From an uncultured Desulfobulbaceae bacterium (lineage in GTDB: Bacteria > Desulfobacterota > Desulfobulbia > Desulfobulbales > Desulfocapsaceae), in NCBI GenBank assembly GCA_965366875.1, contig CBDUGK010000007.1:758-64757 (forward strand): a DNA stretch of 64,000 nucleotides. Reading direction: 5' to 3'. Each line of letters starts with the position of its first letter. Position 1 is the stretch's first letter. The notes beneath the pieces were generated by a model, which did no database searches, was not told where the DNA came from, and saw only the letters and a program-made list of their open reading frames with translations. Shown here piece after piece: positions 1,975-21,261 of this stretch. Made by a program: the position numbers and the translations under genes.

Positions 1975-1993
1975 CTACACGGAGACAAATTCC

Positions 1994-2296
1994 ATGACAG
2001 ACGACACAAAAAAACAACAGCAGATCAAGGTTCGCTATAATGAAACATCGGCCCTCTATGCTTCCCAGTTTATTGTCAACACCAGCGGTGAAGACCTGAT
2101 TATAAATTTTTCCTCAGGCCCGATCACCGATCCAGCCGGCGGGGAATCCATCCTGCCTGTCCATACCCGGATGGCAATGACCATCAATGGTGCCAGACGC
2201 CTGCATAGCGTGCTGGAAAACATTCTGGGCAAACAGGGGGCTGATGCAGCAAAGATTCCTGCCGCTGCGCAGGCAAATCTCTCGGACGTCAACTAA
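1994..2296 (+). CDS. small DUF3467-like protein
   Basis: 100 aa, no signal peptide. YASQFIVNTSGEDLIINF and HTRMAMTINGARRLHSVLENIL fit my memory of the DUF3467 pattern. GGAGA lies 8 nt upstream of the ATG. Confidence 0.55.
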   Translation: MTDDTKKQQQIKVRYNETSALYASQFIVNTSGEDLIINFSSGPITDPAGGESILPVHTRMAMTINGARRLHSVLENILGKQGADAAKIPAAAQANLSDVN

Positions 2297-2311
2297 CGAC
2301 AACTCGTACTA

Positions 2312-4177: not shown

Positions 4178-4183
4178 ACCATT

Positions 4184-6343: not shown

Positions 6344-6409
6344 TCCAGCAGGGGAGTACGCTCTTCAATTACGGAAAAATTCTCGAAATCCCCACAGAGA
6401 AGACCTCTT

Positions 6410-7462
6410 TTACAAAGCGGCGATCACACGGTCAGTAAACGAAGTCGTTGTTTCCTTGCCGCCGAGATCAGGAGTCAAAAGCCCCTCTGAAGTAACTGTC
6501 TCAACGGCCTCCATCAGTGCATCACCGGCCGTTTTCTCACCAAGGAAATCAAGCATCATCTGAACCGACCAGAGTGTTGCAATCGGGTTCGCTATGCCTT
6601 TTCCGGCGATATCCGGGGCGGAACCATGAACCGGCTCAAACATTGAAGGATATTGTTTCGACACATTGATGTTGGCTGACGGCGCAATACCAATGCCGCC
6701 GGCGATCGCCGGGCCGAGATCGGAAAGGATATCGCCGAAGAGATTACTGCCGACAACAACGTCGAACCAGTCGGGATGCTGGACAAAATTGGCGGTAAGA
6801 ATGTCTATGTGAAACTGGTCACAGGTTAAATCGGGGTAAGCTGCGGTAACTGCTTTGAAGCGCTCGTCCCAGAACGGCATGGTGAAGCGGATGCCGTTTG
6901 ATTTGGTTGCCGAGGTAATATGCCTGGCCGGCCTTTTCTGGGCGAGATCGCAGGCGAACGTGAGTATCCGGTCGACTCCCGTCCTGGTAAAAATCGTTTC
7001 CTGAACCGCAAACTCCCGTTCGCTTCCCTCGAAGAGTCGCCCGCCAATTTCTGAATACTCGCCTTCTGTATTCTCCCTGACCACGATGAAATCTATATCG
7101 CTGCTGTCCCTGTTGGCGAGCGGTGAGGAAACCCCTTTCAGCAGCCTCACCGGCCTGAGATTAACATATTGATCGAACCGGCGTCTAATCGGCAGCAGCA
7201 GTTCCCAGAGCGAAACATGATCGGGGACAGCAGGGTCTCCGACAGCACCGAGCAGGATCGCATCAAAGGGTCTGATCTGCTCGAGCCCATCTTCCGGCAT
7301 CATTTTACCATGCTCACGATAGTATTCGCATGAATAAGGAAACTCTTTGTAGGAAACGGTGAAATTGAATTTTGAGGCCAGGACATCCAGAACCCTGACG
7401 CCCTCAGGTATTACTTCTCTGCCAATTCCATCACCCGGTATTAATGCTATTTTATAGCTCAT
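6410..7462 (-). CDS. tartrate dehydrogenase/decarboxylase-like enzyme (isocitrate/isopropylmalate dehydrogenase family)
   Basis: IALIPGDGIGREV N-terminus, GSNLFGDILSD, about 350 aa. Start moved to ATG 7462 (GGAG 6 nt upstream). Confidence 0.75.
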   Translation of the reverse strand: MSYKIALIPGDGIGREVIPEGVRVLDVLASKFNFTVSYKEFPYSCEYYREHGKMMPEDGLEQIRPFDAILLGAVGDPAVPDHVSLWELLLPIRRRFDQYVNLRPVRLLKGVSSPLANRDSSDIDFIVVRENTEGEYSEIGGRLFEGSEREFAVQETIFTRTGVDRILTFACDLAQKRPARHITSATKSNGIRFTMPFWDERFKAVTAAYPDLTCDQFHIDILTANFVQHPDWFDVVVGSNLFGDILSDLGPAIAGGIGIAPSANINVSKQYPSMFEPVHGSAPDIAGKGIANPIATLWSVQMMLDFLGEKTAGDALMEAVETVTSEGLLTPDLGGKETTTSFTDRVIAAL

Positions 7463-7606
7463 GGTCTGCTCCACTTCGTCTTAATTGATTTGTCTGCCGG
7501 TAGTTTCTTGCCATTCTCGGTTCAAACGTTCAAACACACGTGTCTTGTTACTACAATGAAATGATTGAAATATCAATACAACCCTGGAAAGGCAGCGGTG
7601 TCATCA

Positions 7607-8230
7607 CTATTCGCTAAACGGATCAACCGTCTGCCAGACAACGTTGTACCGCCCTGGAGTTATTGCAGCCATAAAGCCCGGCCGTTCATTCAATGTGTCT
7701 GCCGGCAGCTGGTGCTGCACCACAACCCAGCTTTCACCCTGGTAACTCAGCTGGGTCCTGTCCTTGTCAAAAATGTTCGTTATCCTGCAGCCGGCAAGAC
7801 CGGAGAGACCATGACCGGTGGCCTTCAACACCGCCTCCTTGGCCGTCCAGTAGCGGAAAAAAACCACAGGATCATACACCTGGTCCAGTTGCCACTCCGG
7901 CTCTGAGGCAACCTGGTTTTTCAGCTCGTCGGGGACGTCCCGTATCTCTTCAATATCGATGCCGACAGCATGGGGGGCGACAACTGCTGCGACACATCTG
8001 CCTGAATGGGACAGAGACCAGTGAACACCAGCGGTCGGACGGGGGATTCCTGATGCGTCTTTTTGGGGCACAAAAGGTTCAATGCTGCTTCGTTGAGCCG
8101 AACGCTCAAGAGCCTGCCGGGCATAGATGCTGAGCCTCTTGGTTTTCTCCAGGCTTGAAATTCCGGCGACAGCGGAGGGCAGCCTCATGATGACCGGATA
8201 GAGTGCCGCCCAGGTGATGTCACTCTTCAA
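7607..8230 (-). CDS. 4'-phosphopantetheinyl transferase (Sfp type)
   Basis: Motifs GIDIEEI and WTAKEAVLKATG. Confidence 0.8.
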   Translation of the reverse strand: MKSDITWAALYPVIMRLPSAVAGISSLEKTKRLSIYARQALERSAQRSSIEPFVPQKDASGIPRPTAGVHWSLSHSGRCVAAVVAPHAVGIDIEEIRDVPDELKNQVASEPEWQLDQVYDPVVFFRYWTAKEAVLKATGHGLSGLAGCRITNIFDKDRTQLSYQGESWVVVQHQLPADTLNERPGFMAAITPGRYNVVWQTVDPFSE

Positions 8231-8284
8231 ACTGTCTCCTTTTGGCCAGAGCTGATTGTGCCGAGGATGCCCGGCTTTTTCCGG

Positions 8285-10129
8285 TCAGAGCTTTTTCTCC
8301 ACGAGCTTGTCAAACACATAGGGAAGGCACTCTTCCTCTCTCATCGGCCTGCCGCTCAGCATCCGGTGCAGATCGAACCACTCCCTCCGATTGGCCGCAA
8401 CATAGGTATTGAGATCATGCATCTGGAGAAAATTCTCGGTCCGTTCGTCTATCTGCCTGCGGGCGGCATCGTAAAACCGCGGGAATCTTTTGATCAGGGC
8501 CTCGGCCCCGGCGATGTAATGTGACCATCTCCTGTCGTCGATGGCTATTTTCTCGATGCCATCCGTCTCTATCATCGTCTCGAATTCGGGGTTGTCAAAA
8601 AAGTCGATGAAAACGTCCATATAGAATTTGGTCATTTCCAGGACACTTGAGCCGAAAAATGAATTGAAGACGTCATCGTCAATATAGGCATCGGCCAGGT
8701 ACATCAGGTCCTTATCGACATAATTGTTGTTATACATCTCGGTGTAATCGCACATGCTGCGGACCACCGGCGCATTGCGGTGAAAGCCGATACAGTTGAT
8801 AACGATATCAGCCTCGATACGCCGGTCGTGATTGATGATCACGCCCTGTTCATAAAGCCCGGTAACGCTTCCGGACACGGTGTTCAGCTTGTTCAGGAAA
8901 TGAGCGATAAACCAGATGTCTGAAACACTGATGGTATGACCTTCATGCTTGATTTTGCCCATCCAGCACTCCGGCTGGGTTGCTCCGCTGCGGTCGTAGA
9001 GCTTTTTCCACAGCATCATATTCCTGATATTACTTTTTCTGTCGTGCTGAAAGTTCTCGTCATAAGGGGTGGCAAAATTGAGATAATCGATGATCTTCGG
9101 GCATACTGTGCCGTGCCGGCGGCAGACAACCGTTACGTGCTCTGCGCCATTTTCAAGGGCGGTACGACTGTTTTCGACGGCAAAGGCGCCCATACCGACA
9201 ATAACGACCCTTTTGCCCCGCCACTGGACATCGAGCGCTTCATCCGAAATACCCGAGGTGACGACGCCCCTGAAGAGGTGCTGATTTTCCCAGGTGACAA
9301 TGCGGGGGCTGCCGATCCGATCATTGACCGCGAGTATGATGCCTTTGCAGGCGATGGTTTTTGCCTTGTTGTTCCTGACCACGCTGACCCGGTACTGCCC
9401 CGCCCCTCCTTCGATCCGTTCCGCGCGAGTCCGTGTGTAGAGATGAGCGGATACCTCGGTGAAGAGCTGATGCAGATCCCTGAGGATCTCGGCAGTGGTG
9501 GAGTGATCCCGGTTCGCCCGGATCTTTTTGTCAAGCAGCCGGTACGCCCCTTCTGACGTGTTTACCTGTGAGGTGGCGTTGGCATATTTTGTCCAGATCC
9601 CCCCGGCGATGTCGCGCTCTTCAACCACACAAAACGACAATCCCTCCCTGGCCAGGCGATGGGCAGCGTAGAGGCCGGTAATTCCCGCCCCAACGACCAA
9701 TACATCGACTTGCTCCGGCAGATCCGTGCTGTTCCTGTTATCCAGATCGCCCTTGTCAAATGAAAATCGCTGTCGGCCATAGCGGTCAACCTGCGCAAAA
9801 ATATCAGCTGCCTCCGGCGAGTCCACCGGCACAATATCGAGGTGTGAACTTGCCAGGGCTGAAAAATCTCCGTCAACAACAAACAGCGCATGGGGATAAC
9901 AGGTTGACCTGATGGCCCGTAGTGAGGCGAGTACCTCGGAGACAAGTTGGGCTCGCTCCCCGGCGACAACATATACCTGGGGTGCATCACTGTACTGCCT
10001 GAGTCTGGCAACGACGGCGGCGCTGTCATCGCCGTTGACCGGGATGATGCGCTCAGCGGAAAGATCAATGGCGCTGAAGTTGACAATTCGTGGTTGGGAG
10101 AGCAGGGGGTTGACAATCGTTTCAGTCAC
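8285..10129 (-). CDS. FAD/NAD(P)-dependent monooxygenase (class B flavoprotein-like) with N-terminal extension
   Basis: VLVVGAGITGLYAA (FAD fold), VVIVGMGAFAVEN (second Rossmann), DIVINCIGF. The first about 150 aa have no motif I recognise. Confidence 0.7.
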   Translation of the reverse strand: MTETIVNPLLSQPRIVNFSAIDLSAERIIPVNGDDSAAVVARLRQYSDAPQVYVVAGERAQLVSEVLASLRAIRSTCYPHALFVVDGDFSALASSHLDIVPVDSPEAADIFAQVDRYGRQRFSFDKGDLDNRNSTDLPEQVDVLVVGAGITGLYAAHRLAREGLSFCVVEERDIAGGIWTKYANATSQVNTSEGAYRLLDKKIRANRDHSTTAEILRDLHQLFTEVSAHLYTRTRAERIEGGAGQYRVSVVRNNKAKTIACKGIILAVNDRIGSPRIVTWENQHLFRGVVTSGISDEALDVQWRGKRVVIVGMGAFAVENSRTALENGAEHVTVVCRRHGTVCPKIIDYLNFATPYDENFQHDRKSNIRNMMLWKKLYDRSGATQPECWMGKIKHEGHTISVSDIWFIAHFLNKLNTVSGSVTGLYEQGVIINHDRRIEADIVINCIGFHRNAPVVRSMCDYTEMYNNNYVDKDLMYLADAYIDDDVFNSFFGSSVLEMTKFYMDVFIDFFDNPEFETMIETDGIEKIAIDDRRWSHYIAGAEALIKRFPRFYDAARRQIDERTENFLQMHDLNTYVAANRREWFDLHRMLSGRPMREEECLPYVFDKLVEKKL

Positions 10130-10222
10130 ATTATCACCATTTATCTGAGGTTCTTATTAATCTGCTTTTAAAAGATTCGGGGACAGGATACACCATTTTC
10201 CGCCAGCATAGTGCGATTTAGA

Positions 10223-11086
10223 TCACTGCAGGCTTCGGTAGCGTTCTTCCTCCCGATAGTAGAGCGGAAATCCAACGACATCTTTCAATTGCTCAAAATC
10301 GGCAAGACCGGCTGGTGTCTCCCCCCGGCTCAATGCGGCCAGCGTCTGCTCTATTGCCGGCAGAACCGCGAGCAGCAGCGTAAGCGGATATGCCGCTATC
10401 TTGAATCCGATCTCCTCCAGCATGGCTGGTGAAAGAATCGGCGTTTTCCCGTGCTCCAGCATATTAGCCATTTTGGGGCCATCGGTGCAGCTGCAGAATT
10501 CAGCCATCTCTTCCTCCGATTCCGGGGCTTCCAGAAAGAGAATATCAGCACCGATCCGGCGAAAGGCCTGCATCCGCCGGACAGCCTCGGCCAGGCCGTC
10601 AGTGGCACGGGCATCGGTACGAGCCATGATCAGGATATCCGCGCCCTCCTCCCTTGCATCGACGGCGGCCTGCACCCGTCTGCAGGCAGCATCAAAATTC
10701 ACGACCTCTTTGCCGCGGGTGTGGCCGCAGCGCTTCGGCGCCACCTGATCCTCTATCATCACACAGGCAAGACCAGCGCCGGCGTATTCCCGCACCGTAC
10801 GCTTGACGTTGAGGGCATTGCCGTAGCCGGTGTCGCCGTCCCCTATTACGGGGATGGAAACAGCCCTGGTGATCATTCTCGCCTGATCCAGCATTTCCCC
10901 AAAACTGATCAAACCGGTGTCGGGCAGTGCAAGTCTGGCGGCTGATACCGCAAAGCCGCTCATGAAGGTGAGCGGAAATCCCGCCCGTTCAATCATCTTT
11001 GCAGAAAGAGCGTCATAGCAGCACGGCATGGTGATAATGGCAGGTTTCGCGAGTAATTCGCGCAGTCGCTTTGTCGGTAGATTCAT
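10223..11086 (-). CDS. isocitrate lyase/PEP mutase superfamily enzyme, lyase/decarboxylase branch
   Basis: GDGDTGYG and IEDQVAPKRCGHTRGKEVV (PrpB / oxaloacetate decarboxylase-type KRCGH motif). Start set to ATG 11086 so it does not overlap dctM. Confidence 0.8.
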   Translation of the reverse strand: MNLPTKRLRELLAKPAIITMPCCYDALSAKMIERAGFPLTFMSGFAVSAARLALPDTGLISFGEMLDQARMITRAVSIPVIGDGDTGYGNALNVKRTVREYAGAGLACVMIEDQVAPKRCGHTRGKEVVNFDAACRRVQAAVDAREEGADILIMARTDARATDGLAEAVRRMQAFRRIGADILFLEAPESEEEMAEFCSCTDGPKMANMLEHGKTPILSPAMLEEIGFKIAAYPLTLLLAVLPAIEQTLAALSRGETPAGLADFEQLKDVVGFPLYYREEERYRSLQ

Positions 11087-11093
11087 AACTTGA

Positions 11094-12365
11094 CTACAGT
11101 TTAAAGGGTATATAGAGGACGATGTCCGGTACCAGATAAATGGCGACGATCGTGCCAAACATGATGAGAATAAAGGGCCAGACACCGCGGACAACTTCGT
11201 TCAATTTCACCTTGCCAACCGCCTGGATTACAAAGAGATTCATACCCACCGGCGGAGTAATCAGGGCGCACTCGATCATCACCACGAAAAGGACTCCAAA
11301 CCAGATCGGGTCTATCATCATCGGACCCAGAGCCGGAAAAAGTACCGGCACCATTATCAGGAGCATCGAGATCGATTCCAGAAAAAAACCGATGAGGAGC
11401 AGCACCAGGCACACCACCACGATAAACGTTGCGGTGTCACCAATATTATTGGTTATCGCCAGGGAAATTTCCTGGGGTATGCGATAGAGGGTGATGGCTT
11501 TGCCAAAAACCTTGGCCCCTGCAATAATAAGGAAAATGGTCACGGTGGTTGCCATCGACTCCATAACCGCCACCTTCAACTTGGACCAGGTCATGGTCCG
11601 CAGGCTGAAGACGATGACTATCGAGACGACAAAACCCACTGCCGCCGACTCTGTCGGAGTAAAGACACCGAGATAAATGCCGCCGATCACAATAATTGCA
11701 AGAAGAAGCGTCGGCAAAGCCCGAATGCTCGCCTCCCTGCGCTCCCGCCAGCTTGATTTCGGGCTCGGTCGATAACCGCTGCCGAATCGAGCATAACCAA
11801 GACAGTACACAATAAAAAAAACCATCAACAGCAGCCCTGGACCAACACCGGCCATAAACAGGTCTACAATAGACTCCTCGGTGATTACCCCGTAAAGGAT
11901 CAGAGGAATTGAGGGTGGAATCAGGATGCCAAGGGTGCCGCCGGCGGCGAGAAGACCGAGGACAAAAGACCGGTTATAGCCCCGTTCTGTCATTTCCGGA
12001 ATGGCCACGGTGGCGATAGTGGCGGCAGTAGCAACAGAAGATCCTGAAATTGCAGAGAAAATCCCACAGCTGATGATCGTTGCGATACCGAGGCCTCCGG
12101 GCCAGTGACCAACCCAGCACTGTACGGCATTGAACAGGTCGCGGCCAACCCCGCCTTTCAGCAGAATGTTGGACATCAGCAAAAAGAGCGGGACTGCCAG
12201 CAGGACAAAACTGTCTGTCGTCGAATACAGAGCCTGGGGCACCATGACCATAGAGATGTCGGCAAGCCACAGCATAGCCAGACCCAGCCCGCCAAGGGCA
12301 AACGCCACCGGCACCCCAAAAAAGAGCAGGGCCAGGAGAACGATCAGAATCAAAGCCGCAGTCAT
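11094..12365 (-). CDS. dctM: TRAP transporter large permease
   Basis: 423 aa polytopic protein with DctM-type sequence. 4-nt overlap with the upstream small permease. Confidence 0.9.
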   Translation of the reverse strand: MTAALILIVLLALLFFGVPVAFALGGLGLAMLWLADISMVMVPQALYSTTDSFVLLAVPLFLLMSNILLKGGVGRDLFNAVQCWVGHWPGGLGIATIISCGIFSAISGSSVATAATIATVAIPEMTERGYNRSFVLGLLAAGGTLGILIPPSIPLILYGVITEESIVDLFMAGVGPGLLLMVFFIVYCLGYARFGSGYRPSPKSSWRERREASIRALPTLLLAIIVIGGIYLGVFTPTESAAVGFVVSIVIVFSLRTMTWSKLKVAVMESMATTVTIFLIIAGAKVFGKAITLYRIPQEISLAITNNIGDTATFIVVVCLVLLLIGFFLESISMLLIMVPVLFPALGPMMIDPIWFGVLFVVMIECALITPPVGMNLFVIQAVGKVKLNEVVRGVWPFILIMFGTIVAIYLVPDIVLYIPFKL

Positions 12366-12865
12366 TTCTTTCCCCCATCCTCGCAGATAACTGCAGGCCG
12401 GATAAACGTCTGTACCATTTCCACAAGCACCTGGAGCAGCAGCAGGCTGAAACCGATGGGGATAGCCAGTTCAGTCATCCACAGCGGTACACCAAGCATG
12501 GTTGATGAGGCCCGCCCGATACGGATCGATTCGAAAACAGTGGCGCTGCCGAACCAGATAGCAACCAGACAGAATACGGCAATCAGGGTTAGAGAAAAAA
12601 CCTCGCTGACAATGCGCAAGGGGGCAGGCAGTCGATCGCGAATGACCTGGATGGCAATGAGATGCCTGTTTTTCAGGACATAGGCCGCTGCCAGATAGGT
12701 TGCCCAGATCTGCAGAAAGCGTGACATCTCCTCAACCCAGATAGTCGGCTTGATGAAGACATAGCGCGCCACCACTTCAAAAATTATGATGCAGCCGATG
12801 GCAAAGTATAGCCAGGCTGCAACCCTGCCGCAGGCGCTGCTGATTTTGGAAATGAAAGCAAGCAT
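12362..12865 (-). CDS. dctQ: TRAP transporter small permease
   Basis: 167 aa, four hydrophobic segments, placed between dctP and dctM. Confidence 0.8.
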   Translation of the reverse strand: MLAFISKISSACGRVAAWLYFAIGCIIIFEVVARYVFIKPTIWVEEMSRFLQIWATYLAAAYVLKNRHLIAIQVIRDRLPAPLRIVSEVFSLTLIAVFCLVAIWFGSATVFESIRIGRASSTMLGVPLWMTELAIPIGFSLLLLQVLVEMVQTFIRPAVICEDGGKK

Positions 12866-12917
12866 CGATAATGTTTGGCGGGCCGCCGGCAGGGGCCCGC
12901 CGTTCCTTTTTATGGTA

Positions 12918-13904
12918 TTACTTTATGCCGCGGGCCGCATCAACTACCTGCTGGCCGAGAGGACCGGCGCTTTTAACAAAGGCCTCGACAACCGGGGTGG
13001 ATAGCTGCTGCCACTGGGCCAGCTGGTCGTCGGTCAGTTTCACCACATTAATCTTGTCCTTGACGAAGTCAAAAGCCTCGGCCTCAAGGGCAGTCATCTG
13101 GTCACGCAGTTCCTTCTCTACCTTCTGGGCAGCCGCTTCCATGATGCCCCTCTGTTCTTCACTCAGCTCCTGCCAGACCTTTTCATTGATGATGACAATG
13201 AATTCTATATCAACCATGGATTCGGTGGCGGTCAGATTATCCATCACCTGGAAAAGCTTACGGCTTTTGACTGCGGTAACCCCGGTAAGACCAACATCAA
13301 CCGTTCCCCTCTGGTAGGCGAGGAATTGCTCGGATCCGGAAATTGAAGTGGGAGCGCCGCCGGCAGCATTAATCAGTTCACCCAGGGTTTTGGAGAAAAC
13401 CCTGACTTTCTTGCCCTTGAGATCATCAGGGACAATTATGGGATCGCCTTTGCTGAGGATGACCGATCCGCCGTATGCCTGCCACCACATGACACGGGCA
13501 CCGGTAGCCAATATGGCATCATCAAGCGGCTGACGAACCGGGCTGCCCTTGGCCACCGCTTTGTTCAGGGCCTCCTGGCTGGAAAAGAGAAAGGGCACAT
13601 AGAAAAGATCAACCGCCGGGATGGTCCCGGCGAACTGGCTCACCGAAGCAACGCCCATTTCCACCGCACCGGAGGCGACGGCCTGGGGGACTTCACTGTC
13701 CTTGTACAACTGGGCTGAAGGGTAAATCTCCAGTTTGACCTCACCACCAGTTTTAGCAGCAACCTCGTCGGCAAAAGCCTGAACGTTCTTGCCAAGGTGG
13801 TGCGCTGCCGGGAGCTGAAGGGTCAGACGCAATACCTTCTCGGCCTGGGCAGAAGAAGCAATAAACAGCAGTATCGCTGTTGCCGTCATTATTTTCTTTA
13901 ACAT
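12918..13904 (-). CDS. dctP: TRAP transporter substrate-binding protein
   Basis: Signal peptide MLKKIMTATAILLFIASSAQA and DctP-family sequence. Start ATG 13904 is preceded by AAAGGAGAA. Confidence 0.9.
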   Translation of the reverse strand: MLKKIMTATAILLFIASSAQAEKVLRLTLQLPAAHHLGKNVQAFADEVAAKTGGEVKLEIYPSAQLYKDSEVPQAVASGAVEMGVASVSQFAGTIPAVDLFYVPFLFSSQEALNKAVAKGSPVRQPLDDAILATGARVMWWQAYGGSVILSKGDPIIVPDDLKGKKVRVFSKTLGELINAAGGAPTSISGSEQFLAYQRGTVDVGLTGVTAVKSRKLFQVMDNLTATESMVDIEFIVIINEKVWQELSEEQRGIMEAAAQKVEKELRDQMTALEAEAFDFVKDKINVVKLTDDQLAQWQQLSTPVVEAFVKSAGPLGQQVVDAARGIK

Positions 13905-14220
13905 ACCGATTTCTCCTTTTTTTTGATTATTGTAGTGAAGGAGCAATCGTATTGCCCCTCCCTTTCATGCCGAATACCGGCCCGTTCCCATGGCAAATTG
14001 CATGGGCAAATGCCAGGTATTTGTTAACAGCGGATGGGAATCCAGCAGATCGTGGTTTTATCTTTCAATTTGCAAAGATGGGCTTTAACCTTTACATTTC
14101 AGCTGATCACCTGTCAATTCAAATTCGATGGATTTTTCAGTAACAGCAAGGGAGTATTGTCTTTTCCATTTATCAAGACAAGCATACTTTCAACATACTT
14201 TTAGAAAGAGGCATCAGACG

Positions 14221-15357
14221 ATGATTAAAACAACCCATGTCGGCTCGCTCCCCCGTCCCGCCGCAATGATCACCAGACAGCTCAGGAAAGAGGTTCTCTC
14301 TGACGACGATCTGAAAACATATGTCCGGGAACTGATTGAGCGGCAGTTATCCCTCGGCTTGACATGTATAAATAACGGTGAGCTGCCCCGCTCTGACTAC
14401 ATATCCTCAACCGTTGAAAGAATCAGCGGGTTTAACCGGACATGCACCGCGCCGCTTCCCAGGGACCTCGAAGAGCTTCCGGAGTACGCCAGACGGTTCA
14501 GCGGCAGAAACGGTTTGATCATGCTTAACCCGAAAGCGCCGATAACATTGCCGGCCTGCTCGGAAGAGGTATCTTATACCGGAGAGACCTCGCTGCTCAA
14601 GGAACTGGAAATGATGACCGGGGCTTTCCGTGAAGCCGCCGATGGGGCGGACACGGCCGGCTCCTCGCTCTTTTTTACCGCCCCTTCACCGGGAACCGTC
14701 GCCCTGTTTCTGGAAAACCAGTACTATCCGGATTATGAAACCTACCTGCAGCAGCTGGGCATCGCCCTGCAGAAAGAATATGAAATTATTGCCTCTTACG
14801 GCATATCCCTGCAGATCGACTGCCCGGACCTGGCCATGGGGCGGCACACGCGCTACAAACATCTCAACGATAACCAGTTTCTCTCCCTGATTGAAACCAA
14901 CATCGCTGTTCTCAACAAAGCGCTGGAAAATATCGGTCAGGAGCAGTGCAGGGCCCATATCTGCTGGGGCAATTACCCCGGGACGCATCACTGCGATGTC
15001 GAGCTTGCCGCTATTTTCAAACACATCATGCGGCTGAAGCCGCAATACATCTCCCTTGAATCCTGCAACCATCGGCATGCCCATGAATATCAACTATTCA
15101 GGACACACAAGCTCCCGGCAGACAAAATTCTGATGCCCGGTGTCATCGACACCACCTCCAATACCGTCGAACACCCTGAGCTCGTTGCCCAACGGCTGCT
15201 GAATTTCATAAACATACTCGGCCCGGAGCGGGTAGTCGGCTCGACGGACTGCGGGTTTGCCTCAACCGCCTCGGCAACCTCCGTTTCAGGAGAAGTCGCC
15301 TGGCTTAAACTGCAGTCCCTGGTCGACGGGGCACGACTTGCAGAGAAACAATTGTAG
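14221..15357 (+). CDS. cobalamin-independent methionine synthase (MetE C-terminal domain)-like protein
   Basis: Starts MIKTTHVGSLPRP, typical of short MetE-like proteins. ATG 14221 with AGAAAGAGG upstream. Convergent with the PKS gene. Confidence 0.7.
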   Translation: MIKTTHVGSLPRPAAMITRQLRKEVLSDDDLKTYVRELIERQLSLGLTCINNGELPRSDYISSTVERISGFNRTCTAPLPRDLEELPEYARRFSGRNGLIMLNPKAPITLPACSEEVSYTGETSLLKELEMMTGAFREAADGADTAGSSLFFTAPSPGTVALFLENQYYPDYETYLQQLGIALQKEYEIIASYGISLQIDCPDLAMGRHTRYKHLNDNQFLSLIETNIAVLNKALENIGQEQCRAHICWGNYPGTHHCDVELAAIFKHIMRLKPQYISLESCNHRHAHEYQLFRTHKLPADKILMPGVIDTTSNTVEHPELVAQRLLNFINILGPERVVGSTDCGFASTASATSVSGEVAWLKLQSLVDGARLAEKQL

Positions 15358-15384
15358 CAGTTTCTCTACAAGCGGGGAATGTGC

Positions 15385-18345
15385 CTAGGCCGGTACTTTG
15401 GCAAGGATACGGTAGATTTCATCGACGAACTGGTCATAGAGGGGATGCTCAAAAAGGATGTCCGTATCGATCTCTATTGACAGGTTCGATTCCAGCTGCG
15501 ACAGCATCTGTGTCGCTCCCAGGGAGTCGAGCCCCTGGTCGGTCAATTCAATATCGGGATCAATCTCACCCACATTGGTAAGCTCCCGGAATAATCCGGC
15601 GATCATCGTGCCGATATCTTCTCTGCTCCTGACACTGCCGCCTGCTGTATCAACCTGCACCACGCCACACTGCTCCTCCAGAACCGCAACCAGAGAATCC
15701 AGGAGCGGATAGTCGAAAAGCAGATCTTCATCCAGTTCAACATTGAGCTTTTTCTGCAGCGTTCCGAGGAAATCGGTTGCGCTGAGGGAATCCAGCCCCT
15801 GGTCGGTCAACCCGATATCGGCTTCTATGGTTTCGATACCGGTAAGATCGTAGAATGTTTGAACGACAAGCTCACGCACCCCGGAGGTGTTGGCCGCAAC
15901 GCGGTTTTTCTCTGTTGCCTCAGCATTTTCAGGAGCCAATTGATAATAATTCTGCAGCGGGGCGCCGCGTTTGCGATCAAAGGGACTAACAAGCGCAGCC
16001 ATCTCTTTTCTGGCTGAGAGGTCCGCGCCGCTGATAATAATATGGGCGTTCGCTCCGCCGAAGCCGAAACTGCTTACCCCGGCAAGCGCCTGGGGATCGA
16101 CAGGGGTCGGTTTATCGACCACGCTGAGCATGTAAGAATCAAAATCAATAAATTTATTCGGCGTGTCAAAATGTATGTTCCCGGGAATGATCCCCTGGTT
16201 GAGAGCAAGGGCGGCCTTCAGCAATCCGGCTATTCCGGCGGCTGATTCAAGATGGCCCATATTTGACTTTACCGACCCCAGGTAGCAGGTGGTTTTCCTG
16301 TCTTTGGCGATGGTATTCTGGATTGCCGAAATTTCTATCGGGTCTCCGATCTTTGTACCGGTCCCATGACATTCCACATAGGCGATATCCGTCGGCTTGA
16401 CCTCTGCATCCCTGCAGGCCTCGAGTATAAGGTCCTCCTGGGCCGCCGGATGAGGAGCGGTAATGACCTGGGGCCTGGCACCATTCTGGTTGATTGATGA
16501 ACCGAGGACTTCGGCATAGTATTTTTCTACCAGATCCCTGTTGACCAGCAGCACCAGGCCGCCGCCCTCGGCGCGCACATAGCCGTTTGCCGAATCATCA
16601 AAGGCCTTGCAGCGCTGGTCTCTGGAGAGGAAACCGGAATCCCGCATACTGTGGGTAAAGCCATTTCCCAGTATCATATTTACGCCGCCGGCGATGGCAT
16701 AATCCACCCTGCCCGCTTCAATATCCTTGCAGGCATAATGCACGGCGAGCAGAGATGAGGAGCAGGCCGTATTGGCAACCCAGCTGGGACCCCGCAGGTC
16801 GTAATGATAACTGATCCGTGAAGCGATTATGCTCGGGTTCGTGCCGGTCGGATAATAGACAGAATCCCTGTTCCCGGGATACTCCTCATTCCAGGCCCCG
16901 ATATAAACACCGACCCGGTTTTTATCCAGTGCCGCAATGTCAATGCCACTGTCCCTGAAGAGCATCTCCGTCAGCTCAAGCGCCAGGATCTGCTGGGGGT
17001 CCATGCTCCGCGCTTCAGCTTCGGAGATGTTGAAATAGCGATGGTCAAAGCGGGAAACAACGGAATCGAGAAAACCGGCCTCAAAATCACCCCGCAGCGG
17101 ATCACCCCCAACCTGGTCCTCGCCGCTGTTCAGGCTGCTCCAGTATTGCGGCAGGGTTTCAACCGAAGACGGGAACCTGCAGCTCATTGCTGAAATGACT
17201 ACCCGGTTTCTCCGGAACTGGCGGTTCGCTGTAACCTTTTTCTCCGGAGATGCTCCAAACTCGTCGATCAACTGCTGTACGCTCTTGTATCGATAAAAAT
17301 CCTGCGGTGCCAGAAACGGGAAATACGGCTGCAACAGGGCTGCAAACTCGACAAAAACAAGAGAGGTGAACTCCTGGTAGGCAAGCGGGAGGTTAAAATC
17401 AAGGCCCGGCCTGAACGACTCGGTCACCGCTCTCAGTTCAGCAGTGAGATTGGCCTGTTCCAGTTTTTTGCGCTGGAACAGTATCCATGCCGCTTCGTCT
17501 TCACCACGGTACATCGAGGAAGCATAGCGATACTCAGCAAAAACGTCGCAGCATTTTTTCAGCACCGGGTGAAAACCGATCTCAATAACTGTGATATCAT
17601 CGCCATCGAACCGCTCATTGATCGCCGCCAGCGAAGAGATAAAATCTATCGGCTTCGACAACCAGTTCTGCCAGTGGTCGTCCGCCAGAGATACTTCGAA
17701 CTGCCCGGTAACCCCGGAAACAAAGAGAACGGAACCGGCACTCCGGGAAGAAACAGTCTTGAACGCGGAAAGATAGTTTCGGTAGAGCGGGTGGTGCCAG
17801 GGATGGGCGGGCTTCATTTTGACAAAGCCTTCGTGGCGATCAAGAAAATCCTGCATCTCTTCGCTGTTTCCGCTGACCGTTATGTGGATCCGGTCGCCTG
17901 ACAGAAAATTTCGGGAGGAAAGCGAAACATCGAGTCCGGCTATCTGTTCTTCGCTCATGAAGCCATGCAGCATGGTCCCTTCCAGTTTTCCTGCCACCTG
18001 GCCGATCTCATGGGTGAGCAGAAGGATCTCTTCCAGTGAATAGATTCCGGCCTGATAAGCGGCGGTCAGCTCTCCGACACTGTGGCCGACAACAGCGTCC
18101 GGACTGTAGCCCCAGCGAATCCATATATCAGACAGACAGATCTCGGTTGCAACCGTCACAATCGGGCTGGAGGGGCAGCGATGCCTGTCCTTGTCTCCAT
18201 CCCAGATTTCCTCGAGGTCAATAGCCAGTTTGTTCTGGAGAATTTCTGATATCTCTGCCCAGCGGGGAGATGTTTTAATGATTTTCAGGCTGCTTTGGCT
18301 GCTTTTTGTTCCCTCTCCGGAATAGAGAAAAACGACTTTTTTCAT
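15385..18345 (-). CDS. type I polyketide synthase, domain order AT - linker - KS - ACP - ACP
   Basis: Numbering from the ORF start at 18384. AT GHSVGE (Ser102). KS NTACSSS (Cys541), ECHGTGT, NMGHLE. Carrier motifs LDSLS (Ser866) and LDSLG (Ser954). No KR/DH/ER/TE. Likely start ATG 18345 (MKKVVFLYSGEG). Confidence 0.9.
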   Translation of the reverse strand: MKKVVFLYSGEGTKSSQSSLKIIKTSPRWAEISEILQNKLAIDLEEIWDGDKDRHRCPSSPIVTVATEICLSDIWIRWGYSPDAVVGHSVGELTAAYQAGIYSLEEILLLTHEIGQVAGKLEGTMLHGFMSEEQIAGLDVSLSSRNFLSGDRIHITVSGNSEEMQDFLDRHEGFVKMKPAHPWHHPLYRNYLSAFKTVSSRSAGSVLFVSGVTGQFEVSLADDHWQNWLSKPIDFISSLAAINERFDGDDITVIEIGFHPVLKKCCDVFAEYRYASSMYRGEDEAAWILFQRKKLEQANLTAELRAVTESFRPGLDFNLPLAYQEFTSLVFVEFAALLQPYFPFLAPQDFYRYKSVQQLIDEFGASPEKKVTANRQFRRNRVVISAMSCRFPSSVETLPQYWSSLNSGEDQVGGDPLRGDFEAGFLDSVVSRFDHRYFNISEAEARSMDPQQILALELTEMLFRDSGIDIAALDKNRVGVYIGAWNEEYPGNRDSVYYPTGTNPSIIASRISYHYDLRGPSWVANTACSSSLLAVHYACKDIEAGRVDYAIAGGVNMILGNGFTHSMRDSGFLSRDQRCKAFDDSANGYVRAEGGGLVLLVNRDLVEKYYAEVLGSSINQNGARPQVITAPHPAAQEDLILEACRDAEVKPTDIAYVECHGTGTKIGDPIEISAIQNTIAKDRKTTCYLGSVKSNMGHLESAAGIAGLLKAALALNQGIIPGNIHFDTPNKFIDFDSYMLSVVDKPTPVDPQALAGVSSFGFGGANAHIIISGADLSARKEMAALVSPFDRKRGAPLQNYYQLAPENAEATEKNRVAANTSGVRELVVQTFYDLTGIETIEADIGLTDQGLDSLSATDFLGTLQKKLNVELDEDLLFDYPLLDSLVAVLEEQCGVVQVDTAGGSVRSREDIGTMIAGLFRELTNVGEIDPDIELTDQGLDSLGATQMLSQLESNLSIEIDTDILFEHPLYDQFVDEIYRILAKVPA

Positions 18346-18579
18346 ATGGCATTCCTTTATCTCAAAAGCATAAAAAAAAACCACCTGCTAAAGCGGTGGT
18401 TTCACGTATCGTTTTAGCGGAACTTTTAAGGCGCTCGCAATTTGATTTAAATCAGCGCATACAACTCTATAATGTGCCATTCGACGCTGTTGTCAAGAGG
18501 AGTACCTGCGCTTAACGCTGAACGATTGCCTCTGAACATTGAGCTCACTCAATATCCGGGGCGCCGCTCAACCTGACAG

Positions 18580-19152
18580 TCAGCGCCAGTTCTCAACAAC
18601 GATGGAGCGAAAGAAGAGTCTCAGTTTTATCAGGAATCTTCGATAGCGCAGTTTCCATGGATTGGGGAAACGGGAAACATGCCATTCAACGAGAAGAGCA
18701 TCTATCAGGTCTATCTGCCTGGTTTTCAGAAGATGCTCGAGGACGTCGAATTCAGCGCCCTCCACATCCATCTTGCAGACGACGTAGTCATCGCTGCTGA
18801 CATTTTCAGCGAGCCAGCCTCCAAAGTCAATTGTCTCGACCTCGACAAAACGATCAACGCTGATCCGGTTTGACTTTTTTTCGGGGTAAAGGGTCGAGCC
18901 ATCGAACCGTTCGCTGAGATATAATTTCAATCTCCCATAGGCTGTCGATATGGCGGCCTCGAGCACCACTACCCTGGAGTCATCCGTATCGATCTGGCAG
19001 GCATTTTCAGGATTCGGCTCAATCGCGTAAATTGTAGCGAAGGGCCCGTATTTATTATCGAGTTCCTTAATGGCAGAGCCGTTGCTGGCCCCGCAGTCAA
19101 TGAGAATTTTCATGGCGACATACCGGACATCCTGTCTGATAGTTTTCAGCAC
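18580..19152 (-). CDS. FkbM-family SAM-dependent methyltransferase
   Basis: ILIDCGASNGS and VVCKMDVEGAEFDVL motifs. Alternative start ATG 19113. Confidence 0.7.
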   Translation of the reverse strand: MLKTIRQDVRYVAMKILIDCGASNGSAIKELDNKYGPFATIYAIEPNPENACQIDTDDSRVVVLEAAISTAYGRLKLYLSERFDGSTLYPEKKSNRISVDRFVEVETIDFGGWLAENVSSDDYVVCKMDVEGAEFDVLEHLLKTRQIDLIDALLVEWHVSRFPNPWKLRYRRFLIKLRLFFRSIVVENWR

Positions 19153-19238
19153 CGTTTTAAAGGGTCATTGCCATTCGATGTTCTGCCGAATGGTTACTTC
19201 CGCTAGAGGCGATCTGACATTCCCCGTTTATCCTGTCC

Positions 19239-20075
19239 CTACCAGTCAGGCGCTTCGGTCGCCATGGTTTTTTTCCAGAAAATTCCTGAGAAATCCTCGT
19301 ACATGGTTTCCCTGATGCCCATTTTCTCCCTGAAATCCAGAAGAGCTTCCCGGGCGCCTCTCAACAGCCAGTCGTCCAGGATCAGGTAACCGCCAACTTC
19401 CAGTTGATGGTATAATTGTTTGAGTACGGTCATCGTTGAACCATACATGTCTCCATCAAGTCTGAGAATAGACAGCTTCCCGATATTGGCGGTTTTCAAA
19501 GAATCTTCAAAAAAACCTTTGACGAAGATCACGTTATCATCGAGAAGATCAAAGGTTCTGAAATTGTCCTGAACCTGCTCAAGACTGATTGCCAGATGCC
19601 TCAACGTGTGGTGAGTCGCCCCTTTGTCAAGAGGATATTTTTCCTCATCGGGAGGCGGCAGACCATCGAATGAGTCAGCGACATATACGTTCTTTTCTGA
19701 ATTACCGTTTGCCTTCAGGATACCGGCCAGATAGATGGTTGCTCCCCCCTTCCACACCCCTGTTTCTATCAGGTCTCCATCCACCCCGTTCTTCAGACAA
19801 TCCTCCGTGCAATAGCGCAGCGTATCAAGCTTATGCGCGCCGAGCATTGAAACCTTATCTTTCATTATCCTGTTTTTCAAATCATCCAGATATGAATTTT
19901 TCTGTTCATCAGAGCCGAAGTCGTACTCATCAAACTTCCTGATCCCATGCTTTTTGGAGTATTTTATGATCTTTTTTACTTTATTCCTTTCGTATTTTTC
20001 CTGTTTTTTCTCCGCCTGCCTCTTTGAGAGAACTCGATAGAGTTCCGAAGAGGTCATGCGCTCTAGCCAATTCAC
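19239..20075 (-). CDS. TylF/MycF-type (macrocin O-methyltransferase family) methyltransferase
   Basis: GDLIETGVWKGGATIYLA, VADSFDGLPPP, LRLDGDMYGST. Confidence 0.75.
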   Translation of the reverse strand: MNWLERMTSSELYRVLSKRQAEKKQEKYERNKVKKIIKYSKKHGIRKFDEYDFGSDEQKNSYLDDLKNRIMKDKVSMLGAHKLDTLRYCTEDCLKNGVDGDLIETGVWKGGATIYLAGILKANGNSEKNVYVADSFDGLPPPDEEKYPLDKGATHHTLRHLAISLEQVQDNFRTFDLLDDNVIFVKGFFEDSLKTANIGKLSILRLDGDMYGSTMTVLKQLYHQLEVGGYLILDDWLLRGAREALLDFREKMGIRETMYEDFSGIFWKKTMATEAPDW

Positions 20076-20143
20076 ATTCTGCCTCTATTCTCTTGATGTT
20101 TTCCGGATATGCAGCAATGGTAGATGTTTCCTCGGTTACAACA

Positions 20144-21082
20144 CTATTTTCTGAAACTGAACGTAAATCCCAGGAAACCTCCCGGATCCGACGATTCTTT
20201 CATGATTCGATTGCCGTCACTGTCCTCCACTGCAAGCTCAGCGCCGAACTCGACCCCGCCGACAAAACTAAGCTTTATTTCAGGGCTGTAACTGTAGGTA
20301 AAACCGGCATACAGCGGGAACGATCTATCTTCGCCAATTCCACCGGGGACAGTTCCTCTATCATCCAGCCGGAAACGCACTTTTTCATAGCGGCCGCCAA
20401 CGCTGAAGCTCCAGTTCCGATCGGCCCGGTAGTTGAGCGTCAAACCAGGTCCCATGGAGGCCCCAAGCCCCCGTCCGGTCTCAAGGCTGAGGGTGTCGGT
20501 GATCTTCCAGTCAATGATGAGGACGGGAAAGATGGTCGCAGAGTCTTCCAGCTGTGAAACAACCCCGACTCCCGGTCCGATGGTCAGGTGCTCCCCAAAG
20601 CGGTAGGCAACCCCTGTCAGGACCCCGCCGGTGATGGTTTCGTCAAAACTTGAGCCGCTTTCTCCGCTTGATTGAACCGACGGTATCAGAAATGCTGACC
20701 AGTCATCACCGATTCCTTTGCGCATCGGTACACCAAGAGAAAAAGAATGCACATCTTCCCATGGGGCTGTCGCCCCAATACCGCTTCCACGGGAAAATGA
20801 ATAGCCATCATAACTGTAGCCAAGAGCCAGAGATACCGAGGTCCGCGGATCCCAGCCGTAGCCCTGACCTGCTTGAAATGTGAATCGTTTTACATCATAG
20901 CTCCCCCCTTCGTCCAGGTCCGCATCAAACTGATAGACGGCGCCTCCCCGGGCAAAACTTGACCACCCGCCAGGCGCGCCGGAACGGCCCCGGTCTTCCT
21001 GCTGCTGGGCCAGAGAATTTCCGGCTGAAAACACAATATAAGATATAAAAAACACGATGCAAATAGAGCGAAAATATGTCAT
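20144..21082 (-). CDS. putative outer-membrane beta-barrel protein
   Basis: Signal peptide (MTYFRSICIVFFISYIVFSAGNSLAQ). Alternating Gly/aromatic-rich strands through to the C-terminal GFTFSFRK. Family not recognised. Confidence 0.5.
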   Translation of the reverse strand: MTYFRSICIVFFISYIVFSAGNSLAQQQEDRGRSGAPGGWSSFARGGAVYQFDADLDEGGSYDVKRFTFQAGQGYGWDPRTSVSLALGYSYDGYSFSRGSGIGATAPWEDVHSFSLGVPMRKGIGDDWSAFLIPSVQSSGESGSSFDETITGGVLTGVAYRFGEHLTIGPGVGVVSQLEDSATIFPVLIIDWKITDTLSLETGRGLGASMGPGLTLNYRADRNWSFSVGGRYEKVRFRLDDRGTVPGGIGEDRSFPLYAGFTYSYSPEIKLSFVGGVEFGAELAVEDSDGNRIMKESSDPGGFLGFTFSFRK

Positions 21083-21261
21083 ACCGACCTCTCGATGAGT
21101 TGTTCGATTCACGAGCACAAAACAGGATAATGAAGAGCTACTGATACTATGCCACGATTTCTATATCAACACATTCAATATGTAAACCGTGTTTTTTCCA
21201 CGGGGTGACGATGCCGGTTTCGGATAAGATAAGATTAAGGTAGTATGGCGGTGAAGAGAAA

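Follow-up and report, generated by a model that had tools for sequence, protein, structure and literature searches.

A polyketide synthase-like gene of an uncultured Desulfobulbaceae bacterium as the probable carrier and condensing component of a SAM-controlled methionine synthase

The window considered here is a stretch of 64,000 nt from an uncultured Desulfobulbaceae bacterium (contig CBDUGK010000007.1), and its subject is the gene at 15385-18345 on the minus strand, which encodes a protein resembling a type I polyketide synthase (PKS) with acyltransferase (AT), ketosynthase (KS), and acyl carrier protein (ACP) domains. Two further genes of the window, for a protein related to the methionine synthase MetE and for a flavoprotein monooxygenase, accompany it in its relatives, and a gene for a phosphopantetheinyl transferase (PPTase) lies next to the latter. 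The protein-coding features and the domains of the PKS-like protein are as follows:

7607..8230, minus strand: Sfp-type PPTase, likely activator of the three carrier domains, assigned by sequence families
8285..10129, minus strand: class B flavoprotein monooxygenase, 614 aa (sequence hits, structure model, and Foldseek)
14221..15357, plus strand: MetE-like core protein, 378 aa, most likely start ATG at 14221, convergent with the PKS gene
15385..18345, minus strand: PKS-like protein AT-ACP-KS-ACP-ACP, 986 aa from an ATG that follows a good ribosome-binding site (RBS)
17476..18345, minus strand: loading-type AT domain, residues 1-290 (Pfam, AlphaFold and Foldseek, alignment to the CurL AT, family invariants)
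17260..17457, minus strand: loading ACP, residues ~297-362, Ser328 (alignment, PF00550, AlphaFold model)
16003..17208, minus strand: KS and post-KS linker, residues 380-781, Cys528/His660/His698 (Pfam, ortholog alignment)
15670..15882, minus strand: ACP 1, residues ~822-892, Ser853 (Pfam, alignment, alignment to a Polarella protein)
15400..15621, minus strand: ACP 2, residues ~909-982, Ser941 (Pfam, homologue comparison, alignment)

According to Pfam, the PKS-like protein contains an Acyl_transf_1 domain (PF00698) at residues 5-264 with 46 bits (cut-off 32.7), a KS at residues 380-727, a post-KS linker at 729-781, and two PP-binding domains. NCBIfam reports generic PKS and FabF-type matches only, all of them far under the family cut-offs. 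Neither database finds a ketoreductase, dehydratase, enoylreductase, thioesterase, reductase, or condensation domain within the protein, and Pfam reports no AT after the KS that could serve as extender AT. A release domain and further modules are absent from the protein, and none is conserved across the 87 loci compared. Reductive domains and a thioesterase are missing from every member of the family, bacterial or eukaryotic.

Regarding the AT, the catalytic motifs are in place, with Ser89 in GHSVGE and His184 in HPWH. An AlphaFold model of residues 1-380 has a predicted local distance difference test (pLDDT) value of 87 and a predicted template-modelling (TM) score of 0.88, and PKS AT domains are its best Foldseek matches (probability 1.00, TM ~0.65-0.69). 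In the alignment to the malonyl-specific AT of CurL, the position of the carboxylate-binding arginine (Arg117 in FabD) is taken by Ile114, GQG is replaced by GEG, and HAFH by HPWH. Family-wide, the arginine position holds Ile or Leu, and the GEG and HPWH replacements hold as well. Loading ATs for monocarboxylic starters lack the carboxylate-binding arginine, and, read with such general knowledge of ATs, these residues mark the domain as a putative transferase for a monocarboxylic acyl group, not for malonyl.

The segment between AT and KS belongs to the best conserved stretches of the protein in an alignment of 24 orthologues, with the consensus LAYQGFTSLxFVEFSALLQPYFPSLAPQDFYRYK. Ser328 is invariant in all 24, some of which read GFDSL at this point. 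PF00550 reaches 24.8 and 31.9 bits on the segment in two orthologues (cut-off 20.8) and 15 bits, at the same profile positions, on that of the window. The AlphaFold model places four helices within residues 297-362 and Ser328 at the N-terminus of helix II, which is the canonical attachment position.

As for the KS, its two halves match PF00109 (E 9e-62) and PF02801 (E 1.5e-41), and Cys528, His660, and His698 are invariant across the 24 orthologues; it is therefore read as a true decarboxylating condensing enzyme. The closest solved structure is the trans-AT PKS bimodule 7zma with 427 bits, followed by a hit with 306 bits. Of the two C-terminal carriers, ACP 2 is optional, many orthologues of ~900-920 aa having a single ACP. 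The serines Ser328, Ser853, and Ser941, all conserved, are the candidate phosphopantetheine attachment sites.

The original prediction, made from the nucleotide sequence alone, had described this protein as a synthase of inverted AT-KS order, with an N-terminal AT, a decayed carrier domain as linker, a complete KS, and two intact ACPs. Its residue numbers for the KS (Cys541/His673/His711) correspond to Cys528/His660/His698 because they were counted from an alternative GTG start at 18384, which adds 13 residues. The AT is confirmed by the PKS domain profiles that had been proposed as a check, and the modelled fold supports it; the complete KS and the two C-terminal ACPs stand as well, the latter through the Pfam PP-binding matches around Ser853 and Ser941. 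The view of the linker as decayed does not hold, given the invariant Ser328, the PF00550 matches above cut-off in two orthologues, and the four-helix model. With the linker being a real ACP, the layout is a loading AT-ACP didomain followed by an AT-less KS-ACP-ACP extension unit. AT-ACP-KS is thus the ordinary loading-didomain arrangement and no inverted module; the part that is missing is the extender AT after the KS.

Homologues of the PKS-like protein were searched in 5.8 billion proteins, and >1,500 were scored. The top 120 are alike in length and domain set and 54-91% identical. They come mainly from Desulfobacterota; the few named ones belong to Desulfobacteraceae, Desulfobacterales, Desulfobulbaceae, and Desulfocapsaceae (metagenome-assembled genomes) and carry generic protein names only. 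When a library clustered at 50% identity is searched, a single representative stands for the whole bacterial family, and the rest of the list is filled by giant multi-AT PKSs. A scan of genome contigs for generic KS motifs returned mostly unrelated PKSs, with orthologues in L001-L004 only. By family-specific N-terminal patterns 78 further metagenomic loci were fetched, and all their open reading frames were clustered.

Seven orthologous contigs all hold a 378-aa protein of the Meth_synt_2 family and a Pyr_redox_2 flavoprotein of ~610 aa, often with the PPTase next to it. Wherever the PKS gene is complete and at least 1.3 kb of sequence follow it, the MetE-like gene comes next (40 of 40 loci), and the flavoprotein gene is present in all 33 such loci with at least 3.4 kb downstream. 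The three genes are co-directional in the order PKS, MetE-like, flavoprotein in 20 loci, and the MetE-like gene is inverted in 13, the window being of the latter type. In all bacterial loci examined they are three separate genes and never encode one polypeptide. No other biosynthetic genes are conserved nearby among the 87 loci compared. The PPTase gene adjoins the flavoprotein gene in six loci (the window, L080, L082, L086, L087, and L133), and is thereby confirmed as a genuine associate; the original prediction had proposed to express the synthase together with this enzyme.

The MetE-like protein retains the zinc ligands HxC (HICWGNY), Glu (ISLES), and Cys (TDCGF), as well as the homocysteine-site motifs HVGSLPRP, GE..R.D, and QIDxP. 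PF01717 covers its catalytic part only, and the folate-binding N-terminal barrel is absent. Among the named methionine synthase families of NCBIfam the best match is NF003317, with 79 bits vs a cut-off of 406. A zinc homocysteine alkyltransferase is the best reading of this protein, as judged from its residues.

The flavoprotein has the FAD and NADPH Rossmann motifs GAGITG and GMGAFA. Its best sequence hits among solved structures are phenylacetone monooxygenase (PAMO; profile search E 9e-17), steroid and cyclohexanone (CHMO) monooxygenases, and the LbmA Ox-ACP didomain, which is embedded in a PKS. Its model (pLDDT 78) gives the same picture, with the top 50 Foldseek hits being all class B monooxygenases, namely Baeyer-Villiger monooxygenases (BVMOs), flavin-containing monooxygenases, and the LbmA Ox-ACP didomain (probability 1.00). 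In addition, it has an alpha/beta N-terminal domain of ~135 aa and a helical C-terminal domain. The extra N-terminal domain (residues 1-135, listed as window 8285-8700) is conserved in bacteria with invariant Asp48, Pro50, and Pro79, is retained in the eukaryotic fusions described below as a segment between the MetE and oxygenase parts, and may dock a carrier domain.

Eukaryotic relatives were searched with a concatenated query that was scored on the MetE and flavoprotein part and restricted to long proteins. This search returned 48 eukaryotic proteins, 1,100-2,300 aa in length, among which full fusions with AT, KS, ACP, MetE, and Pyr_redox_2 domains are numerous. Their sources include Polarella, Hondaea, Symbiodinium, Cladocopium, Effrenium, Amoebophrya, Chrysophaeum, and Emiliania, with dinoflagellates, haptophytes, and labyrinthulids among them. 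Most of the 48 show ~40% identity across ~99% of the MetE and flavoprotein part. Pfam applied to three fusions reports AT, KS, (ACP,) MetE, and Pyr_redox_2 in the same order as in the bacterial triad. In a colinear alignment the window PKS matches the Polarella fusion over residues 11-930 of the latter (33% identity, E 7e-140), the aligned stretch including the Arg-less AT and the FTS carrier motif, and the C-terminal parts of eukaryotic fusions share 40-42% identity with the window flavoprotein. A fusion of ACP and flavoprotein (1,305 aa) and proteins of ~1,450-1,520 aa that contain a KS also occur in metagenomes (P0125, P0140, and P0170), which suggests that fusion and fission of these modules were repeated.

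MetE-fusion homologues were named in the same taxa by Rao et al. (PMC10861871), who mention bacterial homologues too. MetE-fusion takes the place of MetH in Phaeocystis antarctica, where B12 limitation induces it (PMC10861871). That report of 2024 calls the N-terminal part only PP-binding/ACP/PKS, gives no AT, loading ACP, KS, or mechanism, and leaves the methyl donor open (PMC10861871). The likeness of the window system to MetE-fusion consists in a PKS/PP-binding part, a MetE core of the C-terminal type whose zinc ligands are His-Cys-Glu-Cys, and a Pyr_redox_2 flavoprotein, all in the same order (PMC10861871). Both lack the folate-binding N-terminal barrel, and identity is 33-40% over the full length, as measured on the Polarella, Hondaea, Symbiodinium, and Emiliania homologues. 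In contrast to MetE-fusion, the window system is split in three genes, has an insertion of transporter and lyase genes, a second ACP, a separate PPTase, and SAM riboswitch control (see below), and belongs to a sediment bacterium.

The original prediction had seen no processing or release function in the protein or in adjacent genes and had been unable to match the synthase to any known one. Its first half is correct for the protein itself and fails for the neighbours, as the MetE-like gene (14221-15357) and the flavoprotein gene (8285-10129) are obligatory partners. The picture of an unmatched synthase without partners gives way to that of a tight and widespread family, with partners in 40/40 and 33/33 loci, eukaryotic fusions, and S-adenosylmethionine (SAM) riboswitches. 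The search for orthologues and their neighbours, also proposed there as a check, indeed recovered orthologues of the same architecture together with conserved MetE-like and flavoprotein genes.

Three features precede the PKS gene in its leader:

18469..18496, minus strand: sigma-70-like promoter for the PKS leader, TTGACA, a spacer of 16-17 nt, and CATTAT/ATTATA (10/12 matches)
18405..18463, minus strand: SAM-II-like aptamer candidate, with a 5-bp P1 (GCGCU/AGCGC), GAUUU, UUGC, UUAAA, and a CGCUAAA tail
18371..18397, minus strand: intrinsic terminator as expression platform, ACCACCGC-UUUA-GCAGGUGGU followed by U9, just before the RBS and ATG

Among the first 10 loci, Rfam reports SAM-I riboswitches in four, with 53-56 bits (cut-off 44.4), on the coding strand and ~110-280 nt before the PKS gene. 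A covariance model of our own, built from these four hits, finds SAM-I in 55 of 90 sources, all on the PKS strand; every hit that was cross-checked against a located PKS start lies upstream of it, and no minus-strand hit was found in 770 kb. The window holds no SAM-I aptamer. Its 59-nt SAM-II-like element is near identical in orthologues whose proteins are ~61-68% identical, and the TTGACA...ATTATA block of the promoter is kept in L080, L086, L119, L133, and L003. At the gathering threshold Rfam has no hit in the window, and the element appears at a relaxed threshold only; in that alignment to RF00521 the signature nucleotides GAUUU, UUGC, UUAAA, and CGCUAAA all match. In a 53-kb search of relatives RF00521 did not recover the element. 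R2, our own model of it, gives 82.8 bits for the window and finds 10 further loci (11 sources), always in the PKS leader. After removal of near-identical contigs, and with only leaders of at least 250 nt counted, 65 leaders are left, of which 44 have SAM-I and eight the SAM-II-like element (together 52/65). To our knowledge, nearly all genes under SAM riboswitches are methionine or SAM genes, and two unrelated RNAs predicted to sense SAM before orthologous genes are strong evidence for a role in methionine/SAM metabolism. The window element itself is a candidate SAM sensor, indirectly so, through the SAM-I aptamers found at the same place in orthologous leaders.

According to the predicted pairings, the terminator hairpin (~−11 to −12 kcal/mol) is paired in 94% of cells, and 2 of its pairs show compensatory changes. 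Its 3' half can also pair with the aptamer tail, CCGCUAAA joining UUUAGC(A)GG in an alternative helix of −9 kcal/mol; this antiterminator pairs in 92% of cells, with one G-C to A-U change. SAM would capture the aptamer tail, thereby free the terminator, and turn PKS transcription off. The complementarity of tail and terminator and the pairing exchanges fit such an OFF switch. Other leaders show some variation. Truncated SAM-I remnants (27.6 bits with our own model) occur in L163 at 933-1010 and in the L104 leader, directly after the stop codon of the upstream hydrolase gene and followed by a terminator; these look like decayed or rearranged riboswitches. In L082/L117 and L087 a strong promoter and an intrinsic terminator lie ~200 nt before the PKS gene with no recognised aptamer; the L087 leader begins with AGCGCUGAUUU, like the SAM-II-like element, and is possibly a divergent variant of it.

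Taken together, the obligatory triad, the eukaryotic fusion, the SAM riboswitches, and the match to MetE-fusion place the system in methionine/SAM metabolism. The product of the PKS-like gene probably acts as carrier and condensing component in a SAM-repressed methionine synthase that is independent of folate and B12, i.e., in the unfused bacterial form of MetE-fusion.

As for the source of the methyl group, a more tentative proposal, which is possible and has the odds against it, is that it comes from acetyl-CoA via acetoacetyl-ACP, a Baeyer-Villiger step, and a malonyl-ACP methyl ester, from which it is passed to homocysteine with neither folate nor B12. The Arg-less AT would move acetyl from acetyl-CoA to Ser328 of the loading ACP and on to Cys528 of the KS, which would condense it with malonyl-ACP (on Ser853 or Ser941) to acetoacetyl-ACP. 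A single decarboxylative condensation that yields a tethered beta-keto intermediate, as envisaged in the original prediction, is still the most plausible chemistry. The monooxygenase would then insert oxygen in Baeyer-Villiger fashion to give malonyl-ACP methyl ester, and the zinc-activated thiolate of homocysteine would attack the O-methyl group, leaving methionine and malonyl-ACP, the latter returning to the KS for the next round. In sum, acetyl-CoA, homocysteine, O2, and NADPH would yield methionine, CO2, CoA, NADP+, and water. No release from the carrier is needed in such a cycle, which would explain the lack of an extender AT, a reductive domain, and a thioesterase, and its carrier-bound nature would explain why the carrier domains are indispensable. 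The nearest analogy known to us for the last step is Ada, in which a zinc-bound thiolate attacks a methyl phosphotriester. BVMOs can form methyl esters out of methyl ketones. A direct precedent for the oxygen insertion is OocK, by which beta-ketoacyl thioesters are turned into malonyl esters (PMC6174933). Oxygen and a partner protein are required by MesD, a core methionine synthase whose methyl group is predicted to come from central metabolism (PMC7857596). Oxygen insertion on the other side of the ketone, giving acetoxyacetyl-ACP, was considered and rejected, as thiol attack would not yield methionine.

Several observations weigh against these interpretations. Regarding the methionine synthase assignment, RF00521 scores the window element at 18.8 bits only (18393-18468; E 0.032 in a 231-nt search), with a gathering threshold of 36. 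All copies can form P1 and the proposed pseudoknot, with pairing in 98.6% of cells and no compensatory changes, the copies being too alike, and 13 of the 65 non-redundant leaders have no recognised riboswitch. In loci with an inverted MetE-like gene no conserved RNA element was found upstream of that gene; in the window only the PKS gene carries a riboswitch, and the flavoprotein gene of the window sits behind an inserted module of transporter and lyase genes. No experiment on any bacterial member was found, and the methionine synthase activity of the algal MetE-fusion rests on expression and physiology, with no enzyme assay (PMC10861871).

The acetyl-CoA cycle meets further difficulties. The hosts, Desulfobacteraceae, Desulfobulbaceae, and Desulfocapsaceae, are generally anaerobes, for which an O2-dependent step is unexpected; such a system could be a bypass for times when oxygen disables corrinoid-dependent routes. 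The BVMO fingerprint FxGxxxHxxxW[P/D] is absent from the flavoprotein family, which reads F.G.(I/V)..G.SD, and the equivalent of PAMO Asp66 is not conserved and is mostly Gln; the enzyme is therefore a divergent class B monooxygenase and not a canonical type I BVMO. In Baeyer-Villiger reactions methyl groups migrate poorly, and we know of no enzyme that moves a methyl group from a carboxylic ester to a thiolate. Finally, the first malonyl-ACP must come from elsewhere.

One alternative is a methionine synthase in which the MetE-like protein receives its methyl group from a conventional donor (methyl-folate or a methyl-corrinoid protein, for example) and the PKS and the monooxygenase are accessory, whether as a scaffold, in regulation, in redox repair of the zinc site, or in the supply of a cofactor. 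Methylcobalamin is the in vitro donor of the core MetE enzymes characterised so far, and for MesB and MesC the predicted donor is the corrinoid iron-sulfur protein of anaerobes (PMC7857596), which would suit hosts among the Desulfobacterota; the flavoprotein without BVMO-specific motifs fits as well. An accessory role, however, leaves unexplained the intact and invariant AT serine, KS Cys-His-His, and two or three carrier serines, as well as the strict co-occurrence and the single-chain eukaryotic fusion. It is a lack of B12 that induces the algal fusion (PMC10861871), and the MetE-like protein has no folate-binding N-terminal barrel. A conventional donor is accordingly rated as unlikely.

The two other alternatives are a natural product and a salvage route. 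A minimal PKS of trans-AT type could make a small secondary metabolite, e.g., a beta-keto or ester thioether formed by thiol addition through the MetE-like protein, which extends the original prediction to the partner genes. In its favour, the KS is closest to the trans-AT bimodule 7zma among solved structures, a dedicated Sfp-type PPTase is encoded nearby, and MetE-family zinc enzymes can alkylate thiols with non-methyl electrophiles, as epoxyalkane:coenzyme M transferase does. This reading is very unlikely, however, in view of the homology to a protein substituting for MetH in an alga (PMC10861871), the very high conservation that makes the bacterial family a single 50%-identity cluster, the lack of further conserved biosynthetic genes nearby, and the two SAM riboswitch classes in 52/65 non-redundant leaders. 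Control by SAM would itself be compatible with the salvage of methionine or SAM or with the turnover of sulfur compounds, for instance with a 3-methylthiopropionyl-CoA starter, derived from the breakdown of dimethylsulfoniopropionate (DMSP), that is turned into methionine. Many of the fusion-bearing algae produce DMSP (PMC10861871), and an AT without the malonyl-binding arginine makes an unusual monocarboxylic starter conceivable. One C2 extension of 3-methylthiopropionate, however, gives no methionine skeleton without further steps, and the loci show no conserved aminotransferase or further salvage enzyme. Salvage genes, too, are found under SAM riboswitches. The MetE-like protein keeps its full homocysteine and zinc site, which would be needless for a preformed methylthio group, and a salvage role is considered highly improbable.

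Among other known systems, the core methionine synthases MesA-MesD, especially MesD/MesX, resemble the proposed one: the MetE-type barrel is single, its zinc and homocysteine residues are conserved, and a folate domain is absent (PMC7857596). The dependence of MesD/MesX on a partner and on oxygen, with the methyl group predicted to come from central metabolism by a redox reaction, follows the same logic as proposed here (PMC7857596). In contrast, the partner of MesD is a DUF1852 protein and its hosts are aerobes, whereas a PKS module and a class B monooxygenase accompany the MetE-like protein in Desulfobacterota, and this protein is far under the NCBIfam cut-offs. The PKS part resembles DEBS-type AT-ACP loading combined with a trans-AT KS (7zma) in its AT-ACP before a Cys-His-His KS, its Arg-less AT, and its tandem carriers. 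It differs from modular type I PKSs in having one module, no release domain, and no biosynthetic cluster around it, and in showing SAM control and a conservation typical of primary metabolism. Malonyl-ACP methyl ester is known from the BioC/BioH pimeloyl-ACP route of biotin synthesis; there the methyl group comes from SAM and is removed by hydrolysis, whereas here it would come from acetyl-CoA and go to homocysteine. Monooxygenases of the OocK/PedG type and LbmA Ox (PMC6174933; PDB 8odw) are likewise of class B and act on carrier-tethered substrates, with 8odw among both the sequence and the fold hits of the flavoprotein. The window enzyme, however, is only 14-17% identical to them with a TM of ~0.46, has an extra N-terminal domain and no BVMO fingerprint, and its proposed migrating group is methyl.

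As for the remaining genes around the triad, a TRAP transporter (dctPQM) and a gene for a PrpB/methylisocitrate-lyase-like protein are inserted at 10223-13946 between the MetE-like and flavoprotein genes, an insertion shared with L080, a 91% identical relative. A tartrate-dehydrogenase-type gene follows the PPTase gene at 6410-7474. On the other side, genes for FkbM and TylF methyltransferases and for a 324-aa protein with no family match (18580-21118) were rejected as partners, as they are not conserved with the PKS. In L080 TylF is kept, among acyltransferase_3/SGNH genes, and these three genes probably serve surface-polysaccharide modification. In 15 fetched loci, L084 (8969-9739), L091, L094, L095, L097-L099, L103, L114, L136, L137, L142, L143, L154, and L163, a 256-aa alpha/beta hydrolase (3-oxoadipate enol-lactonase/BioH-like according to NCBIfam) is encoded just upstream of the SAM-I riboswitch and the PKS gene. 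Its gene directly adjoins the start of the PKS gene in L094 and L143 and is absent from the window; an esterase beside a proposed methyl-ester system may or may not be a coincidence. The G+C content is 52-57% over positions 1-18000, from a TolC/HlyD cluster through the PKS gene, and 37-50% beyond ~18 kb, a drop that may mark a segment of different origin. No RNA sequencing runs were found that hold the region, which is covered by marine and sediment metagenome DNA only.

Literature searches returned no paper on the split bacterial operon, the AT-ACP-KS anatomy, control by SAM-I or SAM-II-like RNAs, or any mechanism. What is already known is MetE-fusion itself, published in 2024 (PMC10861871), and what appears to be new here is the split bacterial form, its anatomy, and its SAM control. 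Methionine synthesis without B12 governs which phytoplankton need the vitamin, and the bacterial form, with three small genes, a PPTase, and a SAM switch, opens the question of the methyl source to simple bacterial experiments. Hundreds of generically labelled database entries, or of orphan PKS clusters in genome mining, can be re-annotated by their linkage to MetE-like and flavoprotein genes. If the acetyl-CoA cycle is true, it would be a new way to a biological methyl donor and would give the methyl source of the algal MetE-fusion. It would also be the first case of a PKS module in a core amino-acid pathway, with polyketide machinery working inside primary metabolism.

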